Shown here: positions 19,059 through 47,573 of the stretch, piece after piece
How positions within the stretch are numbered: position 1 is the stretch's first letter
Layout: every line of letters begins with the position of its first letter
NCBI GenBank assembly: GCA_905235065.1
Contig: CAJOJR010000001.1
Span: 33,591-97,590 of the forward strand
Length of the DNA: 64,000 nt
Source: an uncultured Bacilli bacterium
GTDB taxonomy: Bacteria > Bacillota_I > Bacilli_A > RF39 > UBA660
Direction: 5' to 3'
Made by a program: the position numbers and the translations under genes
The notes under the pieces: generated by a model
Databases searched by the model: none
Seen by the model: the letters and a program-made list of their open reading frames with translations, nothing else
What the model was told of the DNA's origin: nothing

Positions 19059-19539
19059 AATTATATTCTTTATATTTTTTTAATACTTCTTTTTCAATTC
19101 TTTCAACTGTTTTTTTACTTTCTGCTGAAGAAAGCAATGTTTCATAATTATTTAATTCAGATATAAAATTTTTACAACTAACAACTTTTTCCCTTACATA
19201 TATATTATCGCCATTTTTTTTATAAAACTCTTTTATTTTTTCTAAATTTTTTAAATTTTTGGTTAAACCAATATAAATATGATACAAGTTATCATCTTCT
19301 TTAACAACTATATAGTTTTCTAATGCTTTTGTTTTATCAGATATGTTTTTTACGTTTTTGTAAGCCGATACTTGAATAAAATACAAAGTATCAGTTTCTT
19401 TTACACCATTTATATTTTTTTTATAATTTAAATAAAGAATTAGTGAAAAGATAATTCCAAGAATAACTGATATAGTAATAACTTTTTTCATATAATCACC
19501 AAAAATATTATATAAATTAAAAACCACATTATTTGTCAT
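19036..19539 (-). CDS. Membrane-anchored protein with a possible C-terminal SPOR-like domain. The start is probably at the internal Met (MKKVITIS..., about 19489).
   Basis: A TM helix is followed by ...YFIQVSAYKNVKNI...LYHIYIGLTKN..., which resembles the SPOR septal peptidoglycan-binding fold. Confidence 0.3.
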   Translation of the reverse strand: MTNNVVFNLYNIFGDYMKKVITISVILGIIFSLILYLNYKKNINGVKETDTLYFIQVSAYKNVKNISDKTKALENYIVVKEDDNLYHIYIGLTKNLKNLEKIKEFYKKNGDNIYVREKVVSCKNFISELNNYETLLSSAESKKTVERIEKEVLKKYKEYNCENIRNG

Positions 19540-20539
19540 AATGTGGTAGTTCTTTTAATTTAGTTAAAACATTATTGAAATTATCACCTTCAATTAATTT
19601 TATATCATATTTATTTTTATCTTTCTCAGATTTGCATTCTTCATAATTATTTGTTGGACATATAAATATTTGAGAACCATTTTTATCAGCACCTGCAAGT
19701 TTATATTTAATGCCAGAAATTTCTCCAACAGAACCATCTTCATTAATCGTACCAGTGCCAGATATTTTATAGCCTTTCGTTATATCTTCCTTAGTTAACA
19801 TATCATATATTTCAAGTGCTGTCATTAATCCTCCAGAAGGTCCAAGTTCATTTTTCTTAAATTTAAAACTTACTTCAGGATCAGTATTTATTTCAATTTC
19901 ATTTTGAATTGCTATTCCAATTAAAAGCTTACCTTCAATATTCTTTATAATCGCATATCTATTTTGTTCCTTGTTATTTCTGGTTACCTTTAAATTGATT
20001 TTTTGTCCCTCTTTAAGAGAACTCACTACATTAGTTAAATCATCAGTATTAGTAACTTTTATATTATTAATACTAGTTATAACATCACCAATTTTTAAAT
20101 CAGTGTCAGATTCTTTATAAATGTATATTACTTTAATTCCTTTTTTATAAGTGTTTACTTCTAAACCAAGTGCTTTAAATGCCACTATAACTGCATTTTT
20201 ATTTACATCATTTAAATATATTTTATTTCTCTCCTCATTTTCTTTTTCACTTTCACCATCAATTCTAATATCCTTAGTAGGTATTAAATCCCACGAAGGT
20301 ATTATATAAGATGCAAGAACAAATAAAATATTCCCTTTGTATCCTCTAACATAAGTTAAATTAAAACTCCCTTCACTTTTATAAGCATTATCTATTTTAA
20401 TTCTATTATTTAAATTAAGTAGTCCTCCAGGAGTATATATTTGATAATCCAGTTTTATAACAGTCAAACATATCAATATTATATATATAAAAATTAACTT
20501 ATAATTATATCTTAAAAATTTTTTTAACTTTTCTTTCAT
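19529..20539 (-). CDS. YlbL/SepM-like membrane protein with PDZ and Lon-like (S16) protease domains.
   Basis: It has an N-terminal TM, a PDZ-like middle region and the C-terminal S16 serine motif ...LGPSGGLMTALEIYD.... Length is 336 aa. Confidence 0.7.
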   Translation of the reverse strand: MKEKLKKFLRYNYKLIFIYIILICLTVIKLDYQIYTPGGLLNLNNRIKIDNAYKSEGSFNLTYVRGYKGNILFVLASYIIPSWDLIPTKDIRIDGESEKENEERNKIYLNDVNKNAVIVAFKALGLEVNTYKKGIKVIYIYKESDTDLKIGDVITSINNIKVTNTDDLTNVVSSLKEGQKINLKVTRNNKEQNRYAIIKNIEGKLLIGIAIQNEIEINTDPEVSFKFKKNELGPSGGLMTALEIYDMLTKEDITKGYKISGTGTINEDGSVGEISGIKYKLAGADKNGSQIFICPTNNYEECKSEKDKNKYDIKLIEGDNFNNVLTKLKELPHYDK

Positions 20540-22543: not shown

Positions 22544-24697
22544 TTATGGATTCTTATTTTCTTTTTCTTCTTTTATTTCTTCTTCTATCTTTTTATATTT
22601 TGGTTCTAGAGTTATCTCAACAATATTTTTAGTATCAATTTTATCGCCAGATTTTATGCTTGTTTCAATTACATAACCATAATTACTAAATTTGGTTTTC
22701 ATATTTAATAGAGAAAAATATATTTCAGCATCTGACCTTGACCAAGATTTCATGTTTGGCATTATATAATTAACCCCATTCGTTAATAAGAATACCTTAT
22801 CATTTTGACTAACTGTTGATTTGTAATCAGGATATTGCTTAATTATTTTCTCACCAGCACCAATTACAATAACTTTAATTCCTTTACTTTCTAAAAACCC
22901 TTTTGATGCATCAACATCTTTATTTATGTAATTAGGCATTTTTATTTGATTGACATCCTCTTTTTTATCAGATTTTTCTATGCCTAAATATGTTCCAGTA
23001 TCTGTTACAAGACCTCTTATTGCTTTTGGAAGTGCAGATGCATTTTGAAGTTTACTTACAGCAGCATAAACAATTACTTGTGGGTCATCCTTAGGAAACA
23101 TTCCAGCAAAACTTCTTACATAATTTGTCCCACCAACTAAATATCCACCATATTTTGAAGCAATTTGAGCAGTACCAGTTTTTCCGATTACGTCAAACCC
23201 AGCCACATCATAACTCTTACCAGTAGACATTGTTGCTCTTCCGTCAACTACTCCACGCATTAATTCTCTAATGTTTTTAACATTTTCTTCAGATGCAACT
23301 TTACCTAACTCTTCTTTTTCACTTTCATAAATAACGTCACCATTTGAATCAACTATTTTAGAAATTATGTATGGCTTTAACATTGTACCATCATTTGCGA
23401 TTACAGTTAGAGCTCTAAGCATTTGTACTGCTGTTACGCTTATACCTTGTCCAAAAGAAGCAGCAGCAATTTCAGTATTATATTTAAAATTAACTACTCC
23501 ATATTGTTCATTCGGAAGTTCAATTCCAGTTTGCTTTCCATAACCTAATGATGTATAAAAATCAAATAATTTTTGTCTTCCCAGTTTTTGAGCAAGTTTA
23601 GTGGCTGCTACATTTGATGACCCCATAAATCCTTCATCAAATGTAATAGTTCCCCATCCATAATTATTCCAATCTTTAATTCTAGCATCATCTATTTGTA
23701 TAGTACCAGATTTATAAGTTTCTTTTCCATTATATACTCCATTTTCCATCGCAGCTAAGAAACTAAATATTTTCATAGTTGATCCTGGTTCATATGTATA
23801 TGATGCAAATGGATCATAATAAGATTTTATATTTTTAGTATTTGGATCAAAATTAGGATATGATGATACTCCTAAAATTTTACCAGTCTTGGCATCCATT
23901 ACACTTATGGTTGCCCATTCTGAACCAGCCTCTTCAATTATGGACATAGCTTGTTCAGCAAATAATTGAACATTTGTGTCAACTGTCAAATAAACGTCAC
24001 TACCTTTGACTGATTCTTCAAGTATTTCAGGAGTATTAGCTATTTTATAACCATACATATCTTGTTGATACTCTCTGTATCCATTTTTACCAGTTAATAT
24101 ATCATTATATTTTAATTCTATTCCCATTTCACCAGTAATTTCATTTGTTGCTTCATCCGTTTTAGCATAACCAATAGTATATGATAAAAAATTTGATTTT
24201 GGATAATATCTTTTAATACTTTTAGAAAAACCAATTCCCGGTAAATTTAAGGCATCAATTTGCTCTTTAACAAGTTCAGTTATTCCTCTTCCGCCTGGTC
24301 CTAATTCCACTTGATAAGCATCATAATTTAAAAGCGATAGTATTCTTTCTTCACTCATATTAATAAGTGGAGACAACATTTTAGCAGTGTATTCTTTGTC
24401 AACAACATGATAAGGATGTGACATATCTTCTGTCCTTGACGGACTTAAATAAGCAATTACTGTATAACTATTAACATCTTGCGCTAACACTTCTCCTGAT
24501 GCATCATATATTGTTCCTCTTGAAGCCAAGATGGTTTCTTTTTTAGTATTTCGATTATTTGCAAAAGTAGTAAGGTTTATACCGTCCACTTTTGGACTTA
24601 ATGCAACATAAAAAAGCTTTAAAACTATTAAAGCAAATAAAAACAAAACAATTATCACAAATGGTAAATTTATTCTAACTGTTCTTGTTTTTTTCAT
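22544..24697 (-). CDS. pbpB: Penicillin-binding protein 2B / FtsI-type division transpeptidase.
   Basis: It is 717 aa with a TM, SxxK (GSTMK), SxN (SSN) and KTGTA motifs and a C-terminal PASTA-like extension. It follows ftsL in the dcw head. Confidence 0.85.
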   Translation of the reverse strand: MKKTRTVRINLPFVIIVLFLFALIVLKLFYVALSPKVDGINLTTFANNRNTKKETILASRGTIYDASGEVLAQDVNSYTVIAYLSPSRTEDMSHPYHVVDKEYTAKMLSPLINMSEERILSLLNYDAYQVELGPGGRGITELVKEQIDALNLPGIGFSKSIKRYYPKSNFLSYTIGYAKTDEATNEITGEMGIELKYNDILTGKNGYREYQQDMYGYKIANTPEILEESVKGSDVYLTVDTNVQLFAEQAMSIIEEAGSEWATISVMDAKTGKILGVSSYPNFDPNTKNIKSYYDPFASYTYEPGSTMKIFSFLAAMENGVYNGKETYKSGTIQIDDARIKDWNNYGWGTITFDEGFMGSSNVAATKLAQKLGRQKLFDFYTSLGYGKQTGIELPNEQYGVVNFKYNTEIAAASFGQGISVTAVQMLRALTVIANDGTMLKPYIISKIVDSNGDVIYESEKEELGKVASEENVKNIRELMRGVVDGRATMSTGKSYDVAGFDVIGKTGTAQIASKYGGYLVGGTNYVRSFAGMFPKDDPQVIVYAAVSKLQNASALPKAIRGLVTDTGTYLGIEKSDKKEDVNQIKMPNYINKDVDASKGFLESKGIKVIVIGAGEKIIKQYPDYKSTVSQNDKVFLLTNGVNYIMPNMKSWSRSDAEIYFSLLNMKTKFSNYGYVIETSIKSGDKIDTKNIVEITLEPKYKKIEEEIKEEKENKNP

Positions 24698-24708
24698 AAT
24701 AAATACTC

Positions 24709-24996
24709 CTACTCTGATATAATTCTAATGTTACTATTATTATACTCTAAACCATAAGATGTTGCAACACTCTCAATTTTATCAAGACTAGATAACTCAT
24801 TTATTTTCATTGATAAACTTTCATTTAATTTTTCTTGTTTAGTTATTTTGCTTTTTACACTTTCTACTTCTATATTAGTTTTAGACAACATTGCAGAAGA
24901 AAAAGCAGGTCCTAATAAGTCACCTATAATTAATAAACCTATTACAAAATATAAAAATTTTTCACCTTTTAATAAGCATATCTTTTTCTTTTGCAT
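24709..24996 (-). CDS. ftsL: Cell division protein FtsL.
   Basis: It is a 95 aa bitopic coiled-coil protein located between rsmH and pbpB. Confidence 0.7.
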   Translation of the reverse strand: MQKKKICLLKGEKFLYFVIGLLIIGDLLGPAFSSAMLSKTNIEVESVKSKITKQEKLNESLSMKINELSSLDKIESVATSYGLEYNNSNIRIISE

Positions 24997-25922: not shown

Positions 25923-26340
25923 CAAATAAATGTTCTGATATCTCTGAGAATTCCTCCTCATTTGTAGTTAAGAAATCATCAAAAGATTCTTTAGCCCAAA
26001 TTTCTAGTCGTTCATTAACGCCAATTATTACACATTCATGATTCAAATTGGCGTAATGAACTAACGGTGAGGTAATACTGATTCGACCTTGTTTATCGAA
26101 TTCACAAACAGTAGCGCCGCTAAGAAAAAATCTCATAAAATTTCTAGCGTCTTTTTTGGTAAAAGGTAAAGATTTTAGTTTATTAATGATATTATTCCAC
26201 TCAGACATAGAATAAATAAATATACATTTATCTAATCCACGGGTGATAATGAATTGTTCACCTAATTCACTTCTAAACTTAGAAGGAATTATTAGTCTAC
26301 CCTTATCATCAATATTATGATGATATTCACCAATAAACAT
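25903..26340 (-). CDS. mraZ: Transcriptional regulator MraZ. The start is probably at MFIGEY, not the longer ORF-track start.
   Basis: It has MFIGEYHHNIDDKGRLIIPSKFR and a second ...DKQGRISI... repeat. The duplicated MraZ fold is characteristic. Confidence 0.9.
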   Translation of the reverse strand: MFIGEYHHNIDDKGRLIIPSKFRSELGEQFIITRGLDKCIFIYSMSEWNNIINKLKSLPFTKKDARNFMRFFLSGATVCEFDKQGRISITSPLVHYANLNHECVIIGVNERLEIWAKESFDDFLTTNEEEFSEISEHLFDGEENA

Positions 26341-26693: not shown

Positions 26694-27236
26694 TTATTCC
26701 TCCATCTCTAATAGTTCTTTTAGATCACTTAACTTGTTACTTTTTAACTCTTCTTCACTAGTTAAGCACCATCCATCCCCTTCTGTTTTAATCTTAGCAT
26801 TATCTTTTACGACTCTACTTGGGATTTCCAAGACAATATTTTCCCACAAAATTGGTAAAATATCAAGTGTATTTGATATAATTTTATAATTTTTTTCAAA
26901 GTCATCACCAAAACCAACTTCTTCATCAATACTAATTTCAAAAGGATAATCTACATCCTCAAGTGATAAAGCACATGGCAAGACCATCGCTCCACTGACA
27001 GTTATATTTAAATTAAATACATCATCACTTAATTCTTTAATATTTCCTTTAACAGAAATTTTACTCAATTCTCTAATATCAGTATCCTTATAATATTCAT
27101 TTGGTATTGAAACAAATTCATTTATATCTATTGAACTATTTCTATTATTAATTAATGGTAATAAATCTATAATCATAACGTCAACTCCTATTAACATTAT
27201 ACTATATTTTAATATATCTTCAAGTATACTAAGCAC
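26694..27236 (-). CDS. yceD: YceD/DUF177 family protein (large-subunit ribosomal accumulation protein, upstream partner of rpmF).
   Basis: It is 180 aa, acidic, with Cys-containing C-terminal motifs. It has the conserved yceD-rpmF pairing. Confidence 0.7.
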   Translation of the reverse strand: MLSILEDILKYSIMLIGVDVMIIDLLPLINNRNSSIDINEFVSIPNEYYKDTDIRELSKISVKGNIKELSDDVFNLNITVSGAMVLPCALSLEDVDYPFEISIDEEVGFGDDFEKNYKIISNTLDILPILWENIVLEIPSRVVKDNAKIKTEGDGWCLTSEEELKSNKLSDLKELLEMEE

Positions 27237-27377
27237 AGTTAGTGATAACTTCAGAAGTGCTATTACTTCCTATGATGTTCAAATTATTCATTCTGAAAAC
27301 ACATAACAATGTAACTAATGCTATTATTATATAGAATGCTATAACTCCTTTATTGATTTTAATTGTTTTTAACATAA
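27229..27377 (-). CDS. Small (47 aa) single-pass membrane protein transcribed divergently from lexA. It is a candidate SOS-regulated factor.
   Basis: There is an ATG at 27375-27377 with RBS AGGAAG 8 nt upstream. The product is MLKTIKINKGVIAFYIIIALVTLLCVFRMNNLNIIGSNSTSEVITNCA, with one hydrophobic helix. A TTGACA/TAAATT promoter with 17-nt spacing contains a 12-bp palindrome in the spacer. Confidence 0.4.
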
Positions 27378-27399
27378 TATCACTTCCTTTTCTAAATAT

Positions 27400-27476
27400 A
27401 ATTTAACACAAACAAATATTTGTGTCAATAAAAATATAAACAATTGTTTGACATCTTTACACTTTAGTGTTAAGAT
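27400..27476. promoter_or_regulatory. Divergent promoter/operator region between the small ORF and lexA. The lexA promoter has -35 TTGACA (27448-27453) and -10 TAAGAT (27471-27476). The minus-strand promoter has -35 at 27423-27428 and -10 at 27400-27405. There are two palindromes, ACAAATATTTGT (27412-27423) and AAACAATTGTTT (27438-27449), the latter an AAC-N4-GTT LexA-box-like site overlapping the lexA -35.
   Basis: Hexamers and spacings were read directly. The Firmicutes LexA (Cheo) box consensus is CGAAC-N4-GTTCG. The second palindrome matches the AAC-N4-GTT core. Confidence 0.45.
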
Positions 27477-27499: not shown

Positions 27500-28117
27500 A
27501 TGGAAAAATTGACAATTAAACAAGAAGAAGTTTTGACAGTTATAAAAAAATATATTGCTAAAAACGGATATGCTCCTACCGTAAGAGAAATATGCACGGA
27601 ATTAAATCTAAGTAGTCCTGCAACTGTATTTGTTCATTTAAAGCATTTAATTAACAAAGGATACTTATCTCAAACAAATTCCAAATTTAGAACTCTTGAA
27701 GTAAAAGTTCCTAATGAATATTTAGAAAAAAGTGATGATGTCGTAAGTATTCCCCTACTTGGCAAAGTTGCAGCAGGTAACCCAATAGAAGCTATTGAAC
27801 ACCCAGATGAATATCTTCCACTTCCAGCTTATATGATTCCAAAGAATAAAGAAGTATTTTCACTTCTTATTCAAGGCGAAAGTATGATTAATGTTGGAAT
27901 ATATAATGGAGATAATGTAATAGTTGAAAGAACTAATACTGCAAAAAATGGAGATTTGGTTGTTGCACTTAATGAAAATAATGAGGCAACATTAAAAACT
28001 TTTTATAAAGAAGATGGATATTTTAGATTACAACCTGAAAATGATACAATGGCCCCTATTATTTTAAAAGAAGTAACAATATTGGGTAAAGCAATTGGTC
28101 TTTATAGAAAATTATAA
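27500..28117 (+). CDS. lexA: LexA repressor (SOS regulon).
   Basis: It is 205 aa with an N-terminal winged HTH (…APTVREICTELNLSSPATVFVHL…). The C-terminal S24 peptidase domain has an Ala-Gly cleavage site (VAAGNP) and Ser/Lys dyad (GESM...K). Confidence 0.95.
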   Translation: MEKLTIKQEEVLTVIKKYIAKNGYAPTVREICTELNLSSPATVFVHLKHLINKGYLSQTNSKFRTLEVKVPNEYLEKSDDVVSIPLLGKVAAGNPIEAIEHPDEYLPLPAYMIPKNKEVFSLLIQGESMINVGIYNGDNVIVERTNTAKNGDLVVALNENNEATLKTFYKEDGYFRLQPENDTMAPIILKEVTILGKAIGLYRKL

Positions 28118-31478: not shown

Positions 31479-32252
31479 TTATGTAGAAAGTCTCCTTACA
31501 TTTTCAATCGCATTTTTTTCAAGTCTAGACACTTGTGCCTGTGATATGCCAATCTCATCAGCTATTTCCATTTGAGTTTTACCAATAACATATCTACTTA
31601 TTAAAATGTCTTTTTCCCTTTGCTTTAATTTATTTAGCGCCTTCCTTAAATTTAATATTTCATCCATATCTGGGTTATCTTTTTTATCTTCCAACTGATC
31701 AAGTAAGTATATTTCATCTTCTCCATCACTATAAATCGGATCAAAAATACTCATTGGTTCTTTTAAAGACATATATGCATTAGACACCTCATATTCTGGA
31801 ATACCTAAATATTTAACAATTTCATCTGTTGAAGGTTCCCTATTATTTTGAATAACAAAATCATCTTTAAATTTTATAATTTTATATGCGGTTTCTTTAA
31901 TACTTCTACTTATTCTAACGGCATTATTATCTCTAATATACCTTTTAATCTCTCCATCTATCATAGGTACAGAATATGTACTAAACTTAACATCATATGA
32001 TAAATCAAAGTTGTCTATGGCCTTTATTAAACCAATACAACCTATTTGAAATAAATCATCTAAATTATCAACCTTACTTTGATATTTTTTTAAAATAGAT
32101 AACACCAATTTTAAATTTCCATACACAAGTAGTTCTTTTACACTTTCATCACCACTTTGATAAGCCTTGAATAGTTTAACCATTTCATCATTTTTAAGAG
32201 TTCTTAAACTACTTGTATCAATACCACATATCTCAACTTTATATTTTGCCAT
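31479..32252 (-). CDS. sigG: Sporulation sigma factor, SigG-like (sigma-70 family, forespore-specific).
   Basis: The N-terminus KVEICGIDTSSLRTLKNDEM.KLF... and ...DDLFQIGCIGLIKAIDNFDLSYDVKFSTYSVPMIDGEIKRYIRDN are near-identical in pattern to Bacillus SigG. Confidence 0.8.
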   Translation of the reverse strand: MAKYKVEICGIDTSSLRTLKNDEMVKLFKAYQSGDESVKELLVYGNLKLVLSILKKYQSKVDNLDDLFQIGCIGLIKAIDNFDLSYDVKFSTYSVPMIDGEIKRYIRDNNAVRISRSIKETAYKIIKFKDDFVIQNNREPSTDEIVKYLGIPEYEVSNAYMSLKEPMSIFDPIYSDGEDEIYLLDQLEDKKDNPDMDEILNLRKALNKLKQREKDILISRYVIGKTQMEIADEIGISQAQVSRLEKNAIENVRRLST

Positions 32253-32328
32253 AACAATCCTTTCATGGATATTATGTATTATTTTTAAATTTATTAAACA
32301 TAAAAAAGCAAATACTTTAAGTATTTGC

Positions 32329-32565
32329 CTAAGCTATATGTTTTAAAATTGTTATTATTATATTTTTATCATCAACTATATCAACATAAGATTTATCTTC
32401 TTCTTTTATCTCTTTTAAAAAAGTCAATTCTTTGTTAAAATCTTCACCATCATTGAATATTTCACTAGTTACATAATAAGTATCACCTTTATATACGACT
32501 TGTCTTATGACTAAATATTCTTTTCCATTAGAAAGTTCAATAACTTGGTTTGTTCTATTCTCCAT
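32329..32565 (-). CDS. DUF1292 (UPF0473/YrzB-like) small protein.
   Basis: It is a 78 aa acidic protein with a ...SNGKEYLVIRQVVYKGDTYYV... pattern. A paralogue lies at 61272-61538. Confidence 0.4.
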   Translation of the reverse strand: MENRTNQVIELSNGKEYLVIRQVVYKGDTYYVTSEIFNDGEDFNKELTFLKEIKEEDKSYVDIVDDKNIIITILKHIA

Positions 32566-32566
32566 A

Positions 32567-33394
32567 TTATCTTCCCTTTCCTCCTTCTAAGTCCATACTA
32601 GCAAGTATTTCTTCAACTGTTTTCATACTACTTAAATTATTTGCAAGATTTTGAGCAACCGCTTCTGGATCACTTTTAATTTCCGGTTCTTCTGATGGCA
32701 ATTCTTCACCAACTTGAGTACTAGCAATTTCATTTGGCATTACTAAATTATGTTGTTCTTCAACTGGTTCTTGAACATTTTCTGAAGCCATTTCACTTTC
32801 TACTGCTTCTTCTTCATCAGCAGAACTAATTGGTTGTTCTTCTTGTACATTCATGCTAATTGGTTCTATTGGTAAACTGGGAGTTTCCTCATACCCATCG
32901 ATAGTTGCCTTCAATTTTTCAGAAGTAAAATATCCTTTAATTTCACTTACATTTGAAGGACCTTGTTTATATGCCTTAATTTCTAATAATTCTTCATTTG
33001 ATTTAGGAACTTCTTCTAATAATGGCGCATTAGATTCTTCGTGGCTTTCTGAAATTTCTTCTGTTTTAACATCTGTCTCTTCTTTTTCATCATTTAGATT
33101 TAATTCATCTATAACAGGTTCATTAATAGGTAATAACTCAGGTGATTCTAATGGAATATCCTCTTTAACTTCTGGTTTTATTTCCTCATTTGCTTCTACT
33201 TTTGTCTCCTCATCAACTGATTCAGTTATTTCTTCTGAAACTGGTACTGGTATAGATTCTAATTCGGGTGACTCCATTTGAGCACTTTTCTCTTCTATTA
33301 ACTCTTTCAGTCTTCTTTCTAACTTGCTTACAGCAGATTGAGTAGCAGATGTCCCCTCTTTTATTTCATTTAATAGTTCTTGTAATTCTTCCAT
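32567..33394 (-). CDS. Highly acidic, Glu/Pro/Ser-rich low-complexity protein (275 aa) of unknown function, inserted between sigE and sigG.
   Basis: Composition was read directly. It has repeated SPEL/EEI/PV motifs and no TM segment. There is a large antisense ORF in the same region, typical of low-complexity bias. Confidence 0.5.
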   Translation of the reverse strand: MEELQELLNEIKEGTSATQSAVSKLERRLKELIEEKSAQMESPELESIPVPVSEEITESVDEETKVEANEEIKPEVKEDIPLESPELLPINEPVIDELNLNDEKEETDVKTEEISESHEESNAPLLEEVPKSNEELLEIKAYKQGPSNVSEIKGYFTSEKLKATIDGYEETPSLPIEPISMNVQEEQPISSADEEEAVESEMASENVQEPVEEQHNLVMPNEIASTQVGEELPSEEPEIKSDPEAVAQNLANNLSSMKTVEEILASMDLEGGKGR

Positions 33395-33461
33395 AATATC
33401 ACTCCCTATTTTTATCTAAATACATTTTATCACGGAAAGTTACAAAAAAAAAGTATATTTT

Positions 33462-34148
33462 CTATACTTTTAATAAATTTGTTAATTTTTTTATTACTTT
33501 TTTTTCAATTCTAGATATATAAGATTGACTAATACCTAGTTTATCTGCCACTTCTTTTTGGGTATATTCTTCACTATTCATAAGTCCATATCTCATAATT
33601 ATTATTTCTTTATCTCTATCATTTAAATTTTCAATCTCATCTAATAATATTTTTTTATCTATTTTATTTTCATATTCTTTTTCTACTAAGTTATCTTCTG
33701 TACCGAGTACATCTTCAAGATGTAATTCATTTCCTTCACTATCAAAATTAATTGAATCTTCAAAACTTACTTCTATTTTTCTTCTTTTATTCTTTCTTAA
33801 AAACATTAATATTTCATTATCAATGCATCTTGATGCATAAGTTGCAAGTTTAATGTTTTTATCAAGTTTATAAGTGTTTACTCCCTTTATTAATCCAATT
33901 GTTCCGATACTTACCAAATCTTCAAGATCATATCCGCTTCCATCATATTTTTTAGATAAAAAGACAACTAACCTTAAATTATGTTCCACAAGTTTATTTC
34001 TTGCTTCTTTATCCCCTTGTTCTCTTAATAAGACTAGTCTTTCTTCCTCTTCTTTAGAAAGTGGTGGTGGTAAAATATCTGTACTCCCCACATAATAAAT
34101 ATCATTACTTCTTTTTAACAATTTTTTTATTATTTCTATTATTTTCAT
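33462..34148 (-). CDS. sigE: Pro-sigma-E (sporulation sigma factor SigE with N-terminal pro-sequence).
   Basis: It has ...YYVGSTDILPPPLSKEEEERL... and ...NLRLVVFLSKKY...DLVSIGTIGLIKGVNTY...KLATYASRCIDNEILMFLR, matching SigE. It lies downstream of spoIIGA. Confidence 0.85.
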   Translation of the reverse strand: MKIIEIIKKLLKRSNDIYYVGSTDILPPPLSKEEEERLVLLREQGDKEARNKLVEHNLRLVVFLSKKYDGSGYDLEDLVSIGTIGLIKGVNTYKLDKNIKLATYASRCIDNEILMFLRKNKRRKIEVSFEDSINFDSEGNELHLEDVLGTEDNLVEKEYENKIDKKILLDEIENLNDRDKEIIIMRYGLMNSEEYTQKEVADKLGISQSYISRIEKKVIKKLTNLLKV

Positions 34149-34914
34149 AATTATCCTCCAATATATCTTTATTTATTAGTGAATTTACCCCCTCAATATT
34201 TATTTTCGTAGGAGAAATACCTATTAAAGCCTTTTGTATATTTCCTATTCCATTAACAAAAACATTATCTGCCTTAAAACACTTCATCAAAAAAGAATCA
34301 TTTACTGTATTGCATGGGATTAATAAATATTTTAAATTTTTCTCATTTAGTAATCCTTTATCAATTATAATAATTGGTATTTTAGTATATGGATTTAAAA
34401 TATTCATACCAGTGTCATTATAAGCAGTTATATTAATAACTTGTCCTTTAATATATATGTCAATTTTATATTTTAATGAATAAAATTTTTTTATTTTCAA
34501 TAAATATTTTGTATATATATAAATTATTAATGGGGCAAATATGATTAATAAAACTATATTATTAAATAAAGAATTAATTATATTATTTTTTAATTTCAAA
34601 TTTATTAAATATATAAATCCACCTAGTAATAAACTATTCAAAAAGAAATAAACTAGATTATTTAAAAAATATTTTATGTTTTTATATCCGAAAGCTATTA
34701 GAATCATAATAATAGCTAATAAAAATTTTAAAAAAAACAAAAGCAAGTTGTTTAATTTAACAAATAAAACTATTATACTCAGACTCCCAAATAAAGCTGA
34801 TAATATAAGTTTTCTTAATTTAGTGTTCCTTCTTAATAATATGGATACTGAATATAAAATTAAAAAATCACAAAAGAAATTTATTAAAATTAATATGTCA
34901 ATATAAACTTTCAC
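34105..34914 (-). CDS. spoIIGA: Sigma-E processing peptidase SpoIIGA (membrane aspartic protease).
   Basis: It starts MKVYIDILILINFFCDFLILYSVSILLRRN..., which mirrors the SpoIIGA N-terminus (MKIYLDVIWLLNF...). It is polytopic and lies upstream of sigE. Confidence 0.75.
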   Translation of the reverse strand: MKVYIDILILINFFCDFLILYSVSILLRRNTKLRKLILSALFGSLSIIVLFVKLNNLLLFFLKFLLAIIMILIAFGYKNIKYFLNNLVYFFLNSLLLGGFIYLINLKLKNNIINSLFNNIVLLIIFAPLIIYIYTKYLLKIKKFYSLKYKIDIYIKGQVINITAYNDTGMNILNPYTKIPIIIIDKGLLNEKNLKYLLIPCNTVNDSFLMKCFKADNVFVNGIGNIQKALIGISPTKINIEGVNSLINKDILEDNYENNRNNKKIVKKK

Positions 34915-42783: not shown

Positions 42784-44307
42784 CTATAATTTTTTAAATA
42801 TTTTCTTTCTTATTATATCTTTATAAAATATATAATTCTTATCTTTCCTATATACTATAATGAATATAGCAATTGATAGAGTTATTACACTCATAAACTT
42901 CAATATTAACCACAACCAATTATTACACGGAATAAAGTTATTAATAAAAATAATAACTGACGCTATTAAAATGCCGATAATTGTATACTTAAAATACATA
43001 GCAAAGTAATCTTTTAAATTTATAGTTAGTGATTTCTTTGTAATAACATAAGGTTCCCACCAAAAATTAGTTAGCAAGCATGAAATAATAGTCCCTAAAA
43101 CTACTCCTGCTATTCCTAAATATTTAGCCAAAAGTATTGATGTAAATATATTAATAACAGCTTCTATAACTGGAGAATATTTATCTTTATCATAGTTTCC
43201 TGTTGCTTCTCTAAAAGACATACAAGTTCTTCTCATACCAAATAAATAATAGTTAATAGCAATCGTATAAACAGAGATTGTATTTAACAAATATTTTTTT
43301 CCAAGCCATAAACTAATAAAAGGGTTAAATAAGCATATTAAACAAATAGAACTTATTATATGAATCATATAATCAGCAAAGAATGTTTTTTTAAAAATAT
43401 CTGTCATTTTATTTTTGTTTCCATCTACTTGCAAATTTCCTATACTAGCAATAACGGAACTAAATATTTGTGTAACAATATTTTTTAATGCGGTCAAAAT
43501 TAATATATAATTAGAGTATAATCCAACTTGAATTAATCCTAGCACTTTTGAAATAACGATGTTATCAGTTGAATTTAATACTACTCCCCCAAACTTATGA
43601 TAAAACATGGCTTTTACATTAAGGATGATTTCTTTATAATCTTTTTTATTGATTTTCTCCACATTCTTATCCTTTAAAAATGGATACATCTTATCTGCTT
43701 TCCTATTTAATAATATGTTTTCTGCGAGAGTCATCATTATTTGAACTGCTAAAAATAATATATAATTTTTAGTTAATAACAATATTACTATTTGAACAAC
43801 ATTAAGCATAAAAAAGAATGAGTATCTATAAACTGTAGCAATATATCTTTGTTGATCACCTATAATCAATAATCTTTTATGAGAGAATAAGTATGATGCT
43901 GAAGTATTTAATACAAACAATAAATATATTAAGTCTAAATTTGGAATGTTTGGTACTTCATTCATTAATAATTTGTAAAAGGGTAATGCTATTAAACCCA
44001 GTATTGTAATTATTATAGCTATAGATATATATACTTTTTTGTAAAACTGGATTAAGCTTTTTATTTTTTCATTATCATTTTCTGAAATTGGCTTATATAA
44101 TTGATAAGACATTGCCGTAACAAAACCAAGTTCAGTTAAACTTAATATTGTTAATATATTAGTAAATAAGCCACTTAAACCTAAGTATTCAGAAGATAAT
44201 GTTTTAACAAAAACAAGTCTAGAAACTAAGCTAATTAGTATTCCTAAACCTTGTCCAGCCATAGCAAATATTAAATTTCTTATTGAATTATCTGTTCTTG
44301 ATTTCAT
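42784..44307 (-). CDS. Wzx-type polysaccharide flippase (MOP superfamily oligosaccharide flippase).
   Basis: It is 507 aa with about 12-14 TM. The N-terminus ...RNLIFAMAGQGLGILISLVSRLVFVKTLSSEYLGLSGLFTNILTILSLTELG is typical of Wzx/PST proteins. Confidence 0.7.
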   Translation of the reverse strand: MKSRTDNSIRNLIFAMAGQGLGILISLVSRLVFVKTLSSEYLGLSGLFTNILTILSLTELGFVTAMSYQLYKPISENDNEKIKSLIQFYKKVYISIAIIITILGLIALPFYKLLMNEVPNIPNLDLIYLLFVLNTSASYLFSHKRLLIIGDQQRYIATVYRYSFFFMLNVVQIVILLLTKNYILFLAVQIMMTLAENILLNRKADKMYPFLKDKNVEKINKKDYKEIILNVKAMFYHKFGGVVLNSTDNIVISKVLGLIQVGLYSNYILILTALKNIVTQIFSSVIASIGNLQVDGNKNKMTDIFKKTFFADYMIHIISSICLICLFNPFISLWLGKKYLLNTISVYTIAINYYLFGMRRTCMSFREATGNYDKDKYSPVIEAVINIFTSILLAKYLGIAGVVLGTIISCLLTNFWWEPYVITKKSLTINLKDYFAMYFKYTIIGILIASVIIFINNFIPCNNWLWLILKFMSVITLSIAIFIIVYRKDKNYIFYKDIIRKKIFKKL

Positions 44308-45676
44308 TTTTGGTTACCTCAAATTTTTTTATTCTAGTGAATAAGCTTTTTATTTCTTTTGTGTCATGTTCTAAAAAATATAGTAAACAATAAAGCACAA
44401 CAAATTTAAATATAGTATTTATATGAACAAATGTGCTAAATAAATATTCATCTCTAACTTGGTCTATTACCATATATAAATACATCACATAAAATATTAT
44501 TGATAAATTTGTCTTCTTTTTGTTCATAATAATATATAGCAAAGAAAATATAAAACCATTTATAAACTGCAATATCACTACGCCAAGATATCCAAAATCA
44601 TGATAATACCTTTTGGATGAGGTATATATATTACTTTGCATTTTTACATTATTTTTAGTGTAGAAAGATGTCCACTTAGTAGTAATTGGTTGAATATAAT
44701 TAGATAAATGAAGTTTATAAGCAACATTCTGAATCCCTCTAAATGTTTCTTCACCAAAAAGCTTTGGCTTTTCCTCTAGAGAATCTAAGTATTTTTGCAA
44801 AGACGGTATTGGTGCTCCAAAATAAAATGTTGTATATTCTATTATATTAGCTTTTGTATTTCTTCCAAGCAATGGCAAAACCAAATAAAACATAGCAGCC
44901 CCGGATACTAAAAATATAATTAAATATTTCCAATATATTTTTAAAATATTTTTGTATGTGTTTTTCTTATGCGCATGTAAAACACACAAAATTGAAAAGA
45001 ATAAAACATATACTATAACCTGCATCCTACTACCTATTAATAAACTCATTAATATACATATTAATATATTAGAAAAATAAACAATACTATTTTTAGTTTT
45101 AAACAATTCTTTCTTATACATGGAACAGCTTAGTAAGTATATATTCACATAACAAATAACCTCGGACACTTTTTGTAATTGAGCTACAATAAAATTAATA
45201 TGAATACCAGATTTAATATACTCAGTTGAAAACAAAATAGAAGTAGATCTATAAGTTTTAATCATGTTAAAAATACCACCATTATAGCCAACTATTGATG
45301 CTATTCTATGTACCTCAAAAAGTACCAAAATGAAAACCAAAAAGACAAATACTAATTGTATTAAAGATTTCCATAATGGTATATTCTTAATTTCATTTTT
45401 AAAACTTTTTATTTTATAATTTTTATCAAGATATTTTCTACAAACAAATTCACCCATATTAAAAAATAATATAGACACAACAACAATTATGGTAGCTTTT
45501 AACGTTAAAACTTTTACATCATTCCAAAAAAGTAATCCTAAAAAAGCACAAATTAAAGATAATAATATAGAAATATTATATAAAAAAGATGGGGATAAGT
45601 AGTCGTCGTTATATAATTTCAGGTTCAAATAAATCATACCTACTATAAAACATATTAATAATATATATGTATACAT
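44288..45676 (-). CDS. Polytopic membrane protein, putative Wzy-like polysaccharide polymerase.
   Basis: It is 462 aa with about 11 TM plus a large loop. It sits between the flippase gene and the modification genes. No sequence motif was assignable by eye. Confidence 0.35.
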   Translation of the reverse strand: MYTYILLICFIVGMIYLNLKLYNDDYLSPSFLYNISILLSLICAFLGLLFWNDVKVLTLKATIIVVVSILFFNMGEFVCRKYLDKNYKIKSFKNEIKNIPLWKSLIQLVFVFLVFILVLFEVHRIASIVGYNGGIFNMIKTYRSTSILFSTEYIKSGIHINFIVAQLQKVSEVICYVNIYLLSCSMYKKELFKTKNSIVYFSNILICILMSLLIGSRMQVIVYVLFFSILCVLHAHKKNTYKNILKIYWKYLIIFLVSGAAMFYLVLPLLGRNTKANIIEYTTFYFGAPIPSLQKYLDSLEEKPKLFGEETFRGIQNVAYKLHLSNYIQPITTKWTSFYTKNNVKMQSNIYTSSKRYYHDFGYLGVVILQFINGFIFSLLYIIMNKKKTNLSIIFYVMYLYMVIDQVRDEYLFSTFVHINTIFKFVVLYCLLYFLEHDTKEIKSLFTRIKKFEVTKNEIKNR

Positions 45677-45680
45677 TTTA

Positions 45681-47573
45681 TCACTTCCCTATTTTATGAG
45701 AATATGCTTTCTTGTAAATGGAAAAATAAGGCAGTTTTATTTTTAATAATCTTTTCATAAAACCTATCTTCCATCCGGATTCACCAAAATCTTTTTTTAA
45801 CGATTTTAAATGAAAAATATAATATAGAATGCTTTTGGGTGATGCCATTTTTCTATTAAACATATTATCATTAATTATATTACCAAATATAGTGACAAAT
45901 TTGCAAGATGGATTAATAAAACAATTTGTAAATATATTTATGTATTCATAACTATTATCACGGCTAATATAATCAATGTATTTTGAAATATCTCTAATAA
46001 AATCAACTGCGGATCTCTGAATTAATTCTATTGTTGAATCATTTGCGTTAGGTTTCCCTAATACATAATATGGATCCTTATCATTATATTTGATAGTTGT
46101 TCCGTGATGCGAAGAAAACATTTTTTCAAACAAGTCTCTAAATGAGTAGACTCTAAATTGAATGTCATCAATATAATCTTTATTTTTATAGAATAAATAT
46201 CCAATAGAAGTATTATTATTAATTTCTTTATATTTAGAAGAACTATCTATTCCAAAATATAACCCTCCAACTAATTTTTGGGGATATAAGTCATATAGAA
46301 TTGATTGAGTAGTTCCCTTCCAACCCATATCAATCAAATAAAAACTTTTAACATTCAAAGAATCAAAATAATTATTTAAATTGTTATATTCTTTTTTTCC
46401 TAAAAAAGAGATTTTTTCTTTTAAACAATTTTCATATAATTCTATAAATTCTTTGTTTTCTACATAAAAATCTTTATTATACTTTTTTTCAATATCAAAT
46501 GACCTGATATTCTTGATATGTTTTATCACTTCTTCATCTAGTAAATTCAAATTATCAACTAATTCACAAATATTAAGTCTATTATTTGTTATTGAATCTT
46601 TAAAACAAGCATAAGTGTTGTTTTTATATAAATATGGTAATCTTAAACTTCTTCTAGAAACGTAAAAATATTCTGACACATCAATAGTTTTTGGAAATAA
46701 AATATTGTGTATTTCATGTAACATTTTCATATCTCTAGCACAAAATAATAATTTTGAATTTCTATCATGCAATTGACTGTTGATCCAAAGGGAAAAATAT
46801 AAGCAAACGGGACCTAATACTTCATATCCAAATCTATAATAGTAATTACTATTATTTTTATTATTACAAATAGAATATATTAGATTATTATTTAAACTAT
46901 TTAAATCAATATTATTTTTGTTTAAAAACTTGTTCTTATTCGTTGGTTTAATAAGTAAAGTTTTTATTCCAATCAATTTCGGATACAAAAAATCTCCTTT
47001 TTCAGCATCTCCAATATGAAAAACATCCTTTGGATTAAATTTATTTAAAGAAACAAGTTTTTTAAACAATTTACCAGTACTTTTTTTGACTCTATACTCA
47101 CTAGAAACATATATTTCATCGATAAAATATCCACAATTAGATAATAATCTTTTTAATGTTTTAGCATCATAATACATATCAGAAACACAAATAATTCTTT
47201 TTTTGTTTTCAATAGCAAAATCATATATGCATTTCATTTCTTCATTAGCAACACAAAAAATTTCTTCCGCTTGGAGTTCTAATTTTTTTAATAAAACTTT
47301 ATCATACTTGTTATCAAAGCATTCATATATTTCATCAAAAGTAGCTTCTTCTACTTTGTACTTCGCTTTAGCAAGTCTAGAAGCTTCTATTCTCTTTGTT
47401 GTAAAATCAATAATTTTATTTTTAGATATTTCATTATATTTTTTTTCTACATAGGAAAAAATATCTGTAGAAGTTAAACAATTTCTACAAATTAATGTAT
47501 CAAAAATATCAAAAGATATAACATCTCTTTTTAAAATATTTTTTTTGATTCTATTAGAAATACTTTTAATCAT
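45681..47573 (-). CDS. Large (630 aa) protein with an N-terminal HAD-superfamily phosphatase domain and an uncharacterised C-terminal domain of about 400 aa.
   Basis: HAD motif I (FDIFDTLI), motif II (ICVSD), motif III Lys and motif IV (HIGDAEKGD) are present in the first roughly 210 aa. The remainder has no recognisable motif. Confidence 0.5.
   Translation of the reverse strand: MIKSISNRIKKNILKRDVISFDIFDTLICRNCLTSTDIFSYVEKKYNEISKNKIIDFTTKRIEASRLAKAKYKVEEATFDEIYECFDNKYDKVLLKKLELQAEEIFCVANEEMKCIYDFAIENKKRIICVSDMYYDAKTLKRLLSNCGYFIDEIYVSSEYRVKKSTGKLFKKLVSLNKFNPKDVFHIGDAEKGDFLYPKLIGIKTLLIKPTNKNKFLNKNNIDLNSLNNNLIYSICNNKNNSNYYYRFGYEVLGPVCLYFSLWINSQLHDRNSKLLFCARDMKMLHEIHNILFPKTIDVSEYFYVSRRSLRLPYLYKNNTYACFKDSITNNRLNICELVDNLNLLDEEVIKHIKNIRSFDIEKKYNKDFYVENKEFIELYENCLKEKISFLGKKEYNNLNNYFDSLNVKSFYLIDMGWKGTTQSILYDLYPQKLVGGLYFGIDSSSKYKEINNNTSIGYLFYKNKDYIDDIQFRVYSFRDLFEKMFSSHHGTTIKYNDKDPYYVLGKPNANDSTIELIQRSAVDFIRDISKYIDYISRDNSYEYINIFTNCFINPSCKFVTIFGNIINDNMFNRKMASPKSILYYIFHLKSLKKDFGESGWKIGFMKRLLKIKLPYFSIYKKAYSHKIGK

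Follow-up and report, generated by a model that had tools for sequence, protein, structure and literature searches.

A small membrane protein gene divergent from lexA in an uncultured Bacilli bacterium: a candidate SOS-induced division inhibitor in the yneA position

Introduction

Small single-pass membrane proteins that are encoded next to lexA, induced in the SOS response and stop septation at a late stage have been reported from Bacillus, Listeria, Staphylococcus, Mycobacterium, and Corynebacterium (PMC6851548). The members of this functional class considered here are YneA, SosA, ChiZ, and DivS. YneA requires its LysM domain for inhibition, its transmembrane (TM) helix localizes to TM7 of FtsW and septal wall synthesis is blocked; according to structure predictions, other such inhibitors may target FtsW too (PMC13396833). 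Two membrane proteases, YlbL and CtpA, remove YneA from the cell (PMC6051672). In this study we analyze a gene for a 48-amino-acid (aa) membrane protein that diverges from lexA in a 64,000-nucleotide (nt) stretch of DNA (hereafter the window; 25% G+C) from an uncultured Bacilli bacterium (assembly GCA_905235065.1, contig CAJOJR010000001.1, positions 33,591 to 97,590). A sequence-only reading of this stretch had put the gene forward as a candidate SOS cell-division inhibitor. We conclude that it is probably an unannotated member of the lexA-adjacent class of damage-induced division blockers. Its control by the SOS response is well supported computationally, and its division-blocking function is what we infer, by analogy only, from the described members of the class.

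Results

The small gene and its product

The small open reading frame (ORF) encodes MLKTIKINKGVIAFYIIIALVTLLCVFRMNNLNIIGSNSTSEVITNCA. The sequence-only reading had recognized the ORF and its single-pass membrane character, both of which hold, but had counted 47 aa where there are 48 codons plus a stop. The ribosome-binding site (RBS) that it had placed ahead of the ORF is present (Table 1), and relatives have a GGAG- or GGAGG-type RBS at the equivalent position, strong RBSs being found throughout the clade. The ORF is a real gene with its peptide under purifying selection. A protein search returned 13 homologues with 72–100% identity and frames that are all intact. The ratio of nonsynonymous to synonymous substitution rates (dN/dS) is 0.07 against relative L083 and 0.24 against relative L001, with synonymous change saturating in both orthologue comparisons (proportion of synonymous differences, pS, 0.44–0.54). 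Constraint peaks at codons 1–34, which comprise the N-terminus, the TM helix, and the juxtamembrane segment (proportion of nonsynonymous differences, pN, 0.025 vs. pS 0.585).

Nine of the 13 homologues are 47–49 aa long. The other four, of 81–82 aa, are calls in which the gene caller extended the frame through the operator region. Versions of about 80–90 aa with gene-caller starts too far upstream were also seen for P0004, P0005, P0008, P0012, P0041, and P0055; in such long versions promoter and operator DNA is read as pseudo-residues, e.g., ‘...SNKC...LTRT...’ from CGAACAnnTGTTCG followed by TTGACA.

The protein starts with a basic N-terminus (residues 1–10), followed by a TM helix at about residues 11–29. 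A juxtamembrane motif, R-x3-L-N (R28 to L32-N33), leads into a polar tail that is about 15 residues long and has Cys-Ala as its last two. AlphaFold2 models one continuous helix over residues 9–47, with a predicted local distance difference test score (pLDDT) of 92–94 in the hydrophobic TM part. A single TM helix with an extracytoplasmic C-terminus is thus predicted from the hydrophobic segment 11–29, the single modeled helix, and the positive-inside bias. A secreted peptide or a lipoprotein was also considered and rejected: conservation is lacking both for the Cys of the TLLC stretch and for any A-x-A site, and a lipobox would not typically have L at −1. A signal anchor is, judging from these sequence features, more likely than either.

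An exhaustive profile search over 1.84 billion representatives (clusters at 50% identity) yielded 116 clusters at E ≤ 0.001, all with proteins of 38–84 aa. The family consists of unannotated proteins of 33–56 aa. Its alignment (A1, 57 distinct sequences) reveals a common plan: a basic N-terminus, often with Y-x-G; a hydrophobic stretch of about 19 residues; a juxtamembrane Arg with, four residues on, Leu or Met and then Asn, Glu, or Asp; and a polar or acidic C-terminal tail of about 20 residues. Conservation is greatest in the membrane-proximal external segment. The N-terminal flank carries a net charge of +1.7 and the tail of −1.0, and an N-in/C-out orientation fits 48 of the 57 members.

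No Pfam match was found for the 48-aa protein at E ≤ 0.1. In Pfam and NCBIfam, this protein and the 57 members gave only scattered sub-threshold matches (among them DUF6814, SecE, and one YneA at E = 0.013), which come from TM-helix composition. Source records name the family members only ‘hypothetical protein’, and our literature search for a description of this small-protein family found none.

In the sub-clade to which the window belongs (P0001–P0013, L001–L005, and L007; window positions 27229–27237), the last residue is invariably Ala and the one before it Cys, Tyr, or Phe (NCA, HCA, HFA, ICA, YCA, VYA, or QYA), and the remaining tail is variable. This end may, in our own interpretation, be a recognition tag for a C-terminal processing protease.

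Pairing of the small gene with lexA

The neighboring gene is lexA, as the sequence-only reading had it. Its product carries both Pfam domains of the repressor and scores 207 bits on TIGR00498 (cut-off 111), and its translation shows a readable Ala-Gly cleavage site (VAAG), the GESM serine, and the TLK lysine. The start codons of the two genes lie on opposite strands, 124 nt apart.

With the LexA of the window as query, 80 loci from uncultured gut Bacillota were fetched (LexA identity 61–97%), with record names such as “Bacilli bacterium,” “Acholeplasma sp. CAG:878,” “Mycoplasma sp. CAG:472,” and “Clostridium sp. CAG:609.” Several records of relatives are labeled Tenericutes, Mycoplasma, Acholeplasma, or even Muribaculaceae, and these labels look unreliable. 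A divergent −35 hexamer 5′ of lexA was detected in 66 of the 80 loci, and 65 of these 66 have an ORF directly behind it (at least 30 aa, with a good RBS). The search for the small ORF next to lexA in relatives, which the sequence-only reading had suggested, was rewarded: in about 60 of the 80 loci this ORF is a family member, i.e., a single-TM ORF of 33–56 aa that starts 110–172 nt from lexA. The next gene past it is transketolase (tkt)-like in about 19 loci, polA in 12, yceD in five, and another gene in about 20. As the far neighbor varies among loci, the pairing is with lexA and not with the other neighbor. In the reverse direction, six of six family members looked up by their own sequence, three of them the weakest profile matches, are located 124–140 nt from a divergent lexA.

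Five loci (L011, 3654–3860; L017, L020, and L024, 3677–3859; L079, 2869–3075) contain an additional ORF of 60–68 aa between the LexA-boxed promoter and the TM ORF. It is helix-turn-helix-like (weak HTH_17 match, E = 0.005) and the arrangement is reminiscent of the multi-gene yneA operon.

Promoters and LexA boxes

The TTGACA-17-TAAATT promoter attributed to the small ORF was recovered by a promoter scan (27428–27400, minus strand). It has a 17-nt spacer, matches 10 of 12 consensus positions and carries a TG upstream of the −10 hexamer; the lexA promoter likewise matches 10 of 12 positions. Promoter-like hits are barely enriched in the window (20 vs. 14.5).

Two putative LexA boxes, A and B, lie in the shared intergenic region (Table 1), and each has one mismatch to CRAACNNNNGTTYG. 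Box A reads CAAAC-AAAT-ATTTG, with one core intact and a G-to-A change in the other core. Box B reads TAAAC-AATT-GTTTG, with its AAC and GTT cores both intact. Every base of both boxes occurs at the same position among relatives. On the strand of the small gene, the clade consensus from 68 distinct sequences anchored on the divergent −35 is TTGACA followed by CGAACAAATGTTCG and TGATAAAAT, the last being the −10 consensus of the clade at the same distance as the −10 of the window. Box A is in register with CGAACnnnnGTTCG, which abuts TGTCAA in these 68 sequences and in B. subtilis yneA; TGTCAA itself is invariant in eight of eight aligned sequences, B. subtilis included. At the lexA promoter, AAAC-N4-GTTTGACA is the best-conserved block of the intergenic region (77 distinct sequences).

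Box positions 2 and 13 are often A and T in this AT-rich clade, and we therefore used CRAAC-N4-GTTYG as working consensus. With at most one mismatch it matches exactly two sites in the 64 kb, boxes A and B. The relatives’ LexA boxes, with the five nearest relatives left out, were turned into a scoring matrix with a symmetric background. It ranks box A first in the window (14.6 bits) and box B second (14.1 bits), ahead of a next site with 11.4 bits, and simulated windows contain 0.23 sites of at least 14.6 bits. Palindromes alone are at chance level (55 perfect 12-nt palindromes vs. 52.5 simulated), as are AAC-N4-GTT sites (16 vs. 15.5 simulated). As neither palindrome type is unusual in the window by itself, the significance of the boxes rests on the comparison with relatives. 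LexA operators at the classic repressing positions, box A between −35 and −10 and box B over the −35 of lexA, are on this comparative evidence well supported computationally.

The sequence-only reading had pointed to two palindromes. The AAC-N4-GTT palindrome over the −35 of lexA is indeed found (AAACAATTGTTT, 27438–27449) and forms the core of box B. The 12-bp palindrome in the promoter spacer, ACAAATATTTGT, is present at 27412–27423, but is centered 2 nt off box A. As an operator we rejected it: it scores −6.3 bits in its own 14-nt frame, it is not conserved in the nearest relative (L001), and such palindromes occur at chance frequency. Nor do we retain the view of the boxes as AT-rich, non-canonical variants, as they are of the ordinary Firmicute type (CGAAC-N4-GTTCG) with G-to-A and C-to-T at the symmetric positions 2 and 13.

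Variation at position 2 follows the repressor. Across the 80 loci (L001–L080), the variable residues at about 44–45 of the LexA recognition helix (window positions 27629–27634) track the operator sequence. At box position 2, A is found in 16 of 19 A-sites and all 25 B-sites of the loci with an ‘FV’ LexA (25, the window included), and G in 12 of 13 A-sites and all 13 B-sites of those with ‘HA’ and ‘QV’ LexAs. This covariation could reflect co-evolution of repressor and operator or only shared ancestry. The third-best matrix site of the window (CAAATAAATGTTCT, 25923–25936) is located at the mraZ/rsmH junction of a division/cell-wall cluster and is probably a chance match.

Table 1. Features of the lexA region and candidate partners of the small protein in the window.
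Feature	Position	Strand	Description	Basis
Small membrane protein gene	27229–27375	−	48 codons + stop (stop included in span)	ORF list
RBS of small gene	27383–27389	−	AAGGAAG, 7 nt 5′ of ATG	Read from sequence
−35 hexamer of small gene	27428–27423	−	TTGACA	Promoter scan
TG-extended −10 of small gene	27400–27408 (TAAATT 27405–27400)	−	TGT TAAATT	Promoter scan
Putative LexA box A	27409–27422	.	CAAACAAATATTTG; fills −35/−10 spacer of small-gene promoter	
Putative LexA box B	27437–27450	.	TAAACAATTGTTTG; overlaps lexA −35; putative autoregulatory operator	
lexA promoter	27448–27476	+	TTGACA, 17-nt spacer, TAAGAT, TG before −10	Promoter scan
lexA	27500–28117	+	205-aa repressor	Pfam LexA_DNA_bind + Peptidase_S24; TIGR00498 equivalog
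FtsL	24709–24996		Candidate partner	
PASTA-bearing class B penicillin-binding protein (PBP)	22544–24697		Candidate partner	
YlbL-type PDZ_2 + Lon_C protein	19529–20539	−	336 aa, no ATPase domain	Domain scan

The corresponding region of Bacillus subtilis

The B. subtilis locus, retrieved via its LexA, contains lexA and, divergently, a 103-aa LysM protein (YneA, carrying PF01476), a resolvase, a DUF896 protein, and transketolase. A literature search for this gene order found nothing, and the divergent position of yneA, stated in the sequence-only reading, was read directly from the genome. The lexA-yneA intergenic DNA aligns with that of the window: CGAACAAACGTTTC abuts TGTCAA and CGAACCTATGTTTG overlaps the −35 of lexA, with a box-to-box distance of 29 nt in B. 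subtilis and 28 nt in the window. The regulatory cassette, and in many relatives the tkt neighbor, are thus shared with Bacillus. In terms of sequence layout, the small ORF occupies the yneA slot.

Surrounding genes

The genes for FtsL and the class B PBP lie 2.2–4.7 kb from the small gene. About 7 kb away lies the gene for the PDZ_2 + Lon_C protein, whose best NCBIfam match is the SepM S16 family (173 bits, under the cut-off of 200). It has the domain plan of YlbL, which clears YneA (PMC6051672), and is by this analogy a candidate for the protease that removes the small protein in recovery. Neither FtsW nor an S41 (CtpA-type) protease was found among the approximately 40 ORFs of the window that were scanned.

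In many relatives the small ORF is followed by polA, encoding Pol I (L086, 2501–5168; L088, 2501–5159; and 12 of L001–L080). The gene order suggests a LexA-controlled operon of the small ORF and polA, and hence a damage-inducible Pol I, in these relatives.

Elsewhere in the window, a spoIIGA-sigE-sigG-like cluster consists of a SpoIIGA gene and two sigma-70-family genes (31479–34914, minus strand), for which the organism looks like a spore-forming member of the Bacillota. Three consecutive large ORFs (507, 462, and 630 aa; 42784–47573, minus strand) have no Pfam match at E ≤ 1e-6 and adjoin cell-envelope genes encoding LicD, LytR_cpsA_psr, and an O-antigen-ligase-like protein.

Discussion

Proposed function and mechanism

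The conserved and selected ORF, its linkage to lexA, and the B. subtilis-like layout bear out the proposal of a small single-pass gene that diverges from lexA under putative LexA operators in the yneA/sosA position. With moderate confidence we read its product as a LexA-repressed, 48-aa bitopic membrane protein (N-in/C-out) in the yneA/sosA slot that would act as an SOS-induced division inhibitor analogous to YneA and SosA.

In the undamaged cell, a LexA dimer on box A (27409–27422), between −35 and −10, would block RNA polymerase, and a second dimer on box B (27437–27450) would cover the −35 of lexA and thereby allow autoregulation. Upon DNA damage, RecA-stimulated self-cleavage of LexA would free both promoters. 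The small protein would then enter the membrane with its C-terminus outside and delay septation by binding the septal peptidoglycan synthase complex (FtsW, class B PBP, FtsL), presumably via the TM helix and the conserved juxtamembrane R-x3-L-[N/E] motif, similar to YneA, SosA, SidA, and DidA. During recovery, an extracytoplasmic membrane protease would turn it over. As the protein has no wall-binding domain and only about 20 residues outside the membrane, its inhibitory step cannot depend on LysM in the manner proposed for YneA.

A more far-reaching version holds that the protein belongs to a minimal SOS checkpoint family (33–56 aa) which replaced the LysM-bearing YneA in the operator slot across a large clade of uncultured gut Bacillota, and which blocks septal wall synthesis by the TM helix and R-x3-L-[N/E] only. 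We advance it tentatively, giving it not quite an even chance; if true, it would imply a mechanism independent of wall binding in Gram-positive cells.

Several findings weigh against a function as division inhibitor. Membership in the YneA sequence family was examined and rejected: LysM is absent from the families matched at E ≤ 1 by any of the 57 members, an hhalign comparison of A1 with B. subtilis YneA gives a probability of 0.3%, and the NCBIfam YneA model (PRK14125) is touched by one of 57 members (E = 0.013). The protein itself lacks LysM or any other wall-binding domain, and its external tail of about 20 residues is short compared with the approximately 47 of SosA. One half-site of box A is weakened, with ATTTG replacing GTTCG. 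No terminator is predicted between the stop of the small ORF and yceD-rpmF (27180–27228). The arrangement could therefore serve in part just to express the genes downstream, and SOS-induced transcripts might read through into yceD and the L32 gene. More generally, lexA adjacency is a better predictor of SOS control than of a specific function.

The lack of a terminator, along with polA following the small ORF in 12 relatives (gap of 24–38 nt in the loci examined), fits a small membrane protein that is SOS-regulated with another role, either as a tether or modulator in repair or replication or as the upstream cistron that makes polA, tkt, or yceD-rpmF damage-inducible. We regard this as unlikely. 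The small ORF and its motif are retained through repeated changes of the downstream gene, purifying selection acts on the peptide sequence itself, and yceD has its own promoter-like site (27223–27196). A small ORF free of LexA control, with a constitutive protein merely beside lexA and boxes that are chance matches in AT-rich DNA, would be in line with the chance frequency of palindromes and AAC-N4-GTT in the window and with the two window-wide matches to the degenerate pattern, which equal the chance expectation of 2.0. It is nevertheless highly improbable, as both matches fall in one 124-nt spacer in registers conserved in about 70 relatives and B. subtilis, the matrix ranks them above every other site in the 64 kb, and box A lies exactly between −35 and −10.

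An SOS-induced, membrane-active protein resembling type I toxins would depolarize the membrane and lead to dormancy or persistence without acting on the divisome. DinQ from Escherichia coli, an SOS-regulated single-TM peptide, is a precedent, and with TisB and DinQ the product studied here shares its small size, its hydrophobicity, the single helix, and a LexA box ahead of the gene (PMC3567139). Those toxins depend on antisense RNAs and structured, processed mRNAs, and neither is apparent from the sequence at the small gene. Its leader is short (about 18 nt) with a strong, exposed RBS, the folding of the mRNA is at the level of shuffled sequence (z = 0.03), the region has no Rfam match, and with only about 50 nt between the stop and the next gene on the same strand a dedicated convergent antisense gene would not fit in. 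A divisome-directed protein also agrees better with the conserved external juxtamembrane motif, the polar tail, and the yneA-equivalent slot, and we consider a toxin quite improbable.

With a division inhibitor of the YneA/SosA kind, our preferred reading, the checkpoint slot next to lexA would be known from a further large clade, that of uncultured, AT-rich gut Bacillota. About 116 sequence clusters that are listed only as hypothetical or missed by databases would receive a name and a function that can be tested. As a very small natural peptide, the protein may act on the FtsW/PBP septal synthase as an inhibitor that needs no wall-binding domain, which would make it useful for comparing inhibitor mechanisms.

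Comparison with known division inhibitors

SidA from Caulobacter crescentus is reportedly a very small bitopic inner-membrane protein that blocks a late division step after DNA damage. DidA from the same species is described as a small membrane division inhibitor acting after DNA damage (PMC4211646). By description, the protein of the window resembles both as a very small bitopic membrane protein, and SidA and DidA block a late, peptidoglycan-synthesizing division step. They differ in that they come from another phylum and are not encoded beside lexA; DidA is moreover SOS-independent.

SosA from Staphylococcus aureus is closer in several respects. It is small, divergent from lexA, and LexA-controlled, with one TM helix near the N-terminus and an external C-terminus. 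Like the small protein it has no LysM domain, its conservation is concentrated in the membrane-proximal external part, and it has no clear homology to other inhibitors (PMC6851548). The difference, in a comparison by description only, is one of size: SosA has 77 aa with an external part of about 47, compared to 48 aa with a tail of about 20. The NCBIfam matches of the 57 members include no SosA-named family at E ≤ 1.

The locus of YneA provides the most detailed parallel. Both genes diverge from lexA, with a LexA box abutting the −35 and a second one on the −35 of lexA 28–29 nt away, and tkt follows farther out in B. subtilis as in many relatives of the window. Both products have one N-terminal TM helix and an external C-terminus, which for the small protein is a prediction. 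Unlike YneA with its 103 aa and LysM domain, the small protein has 48 aa and no domain match. The comparison shows conservation of the whole divergent promoter/operator cassette between B. subtilis and this clade, whereas the protein encoded behind it was either replaced or diverged past recognition.

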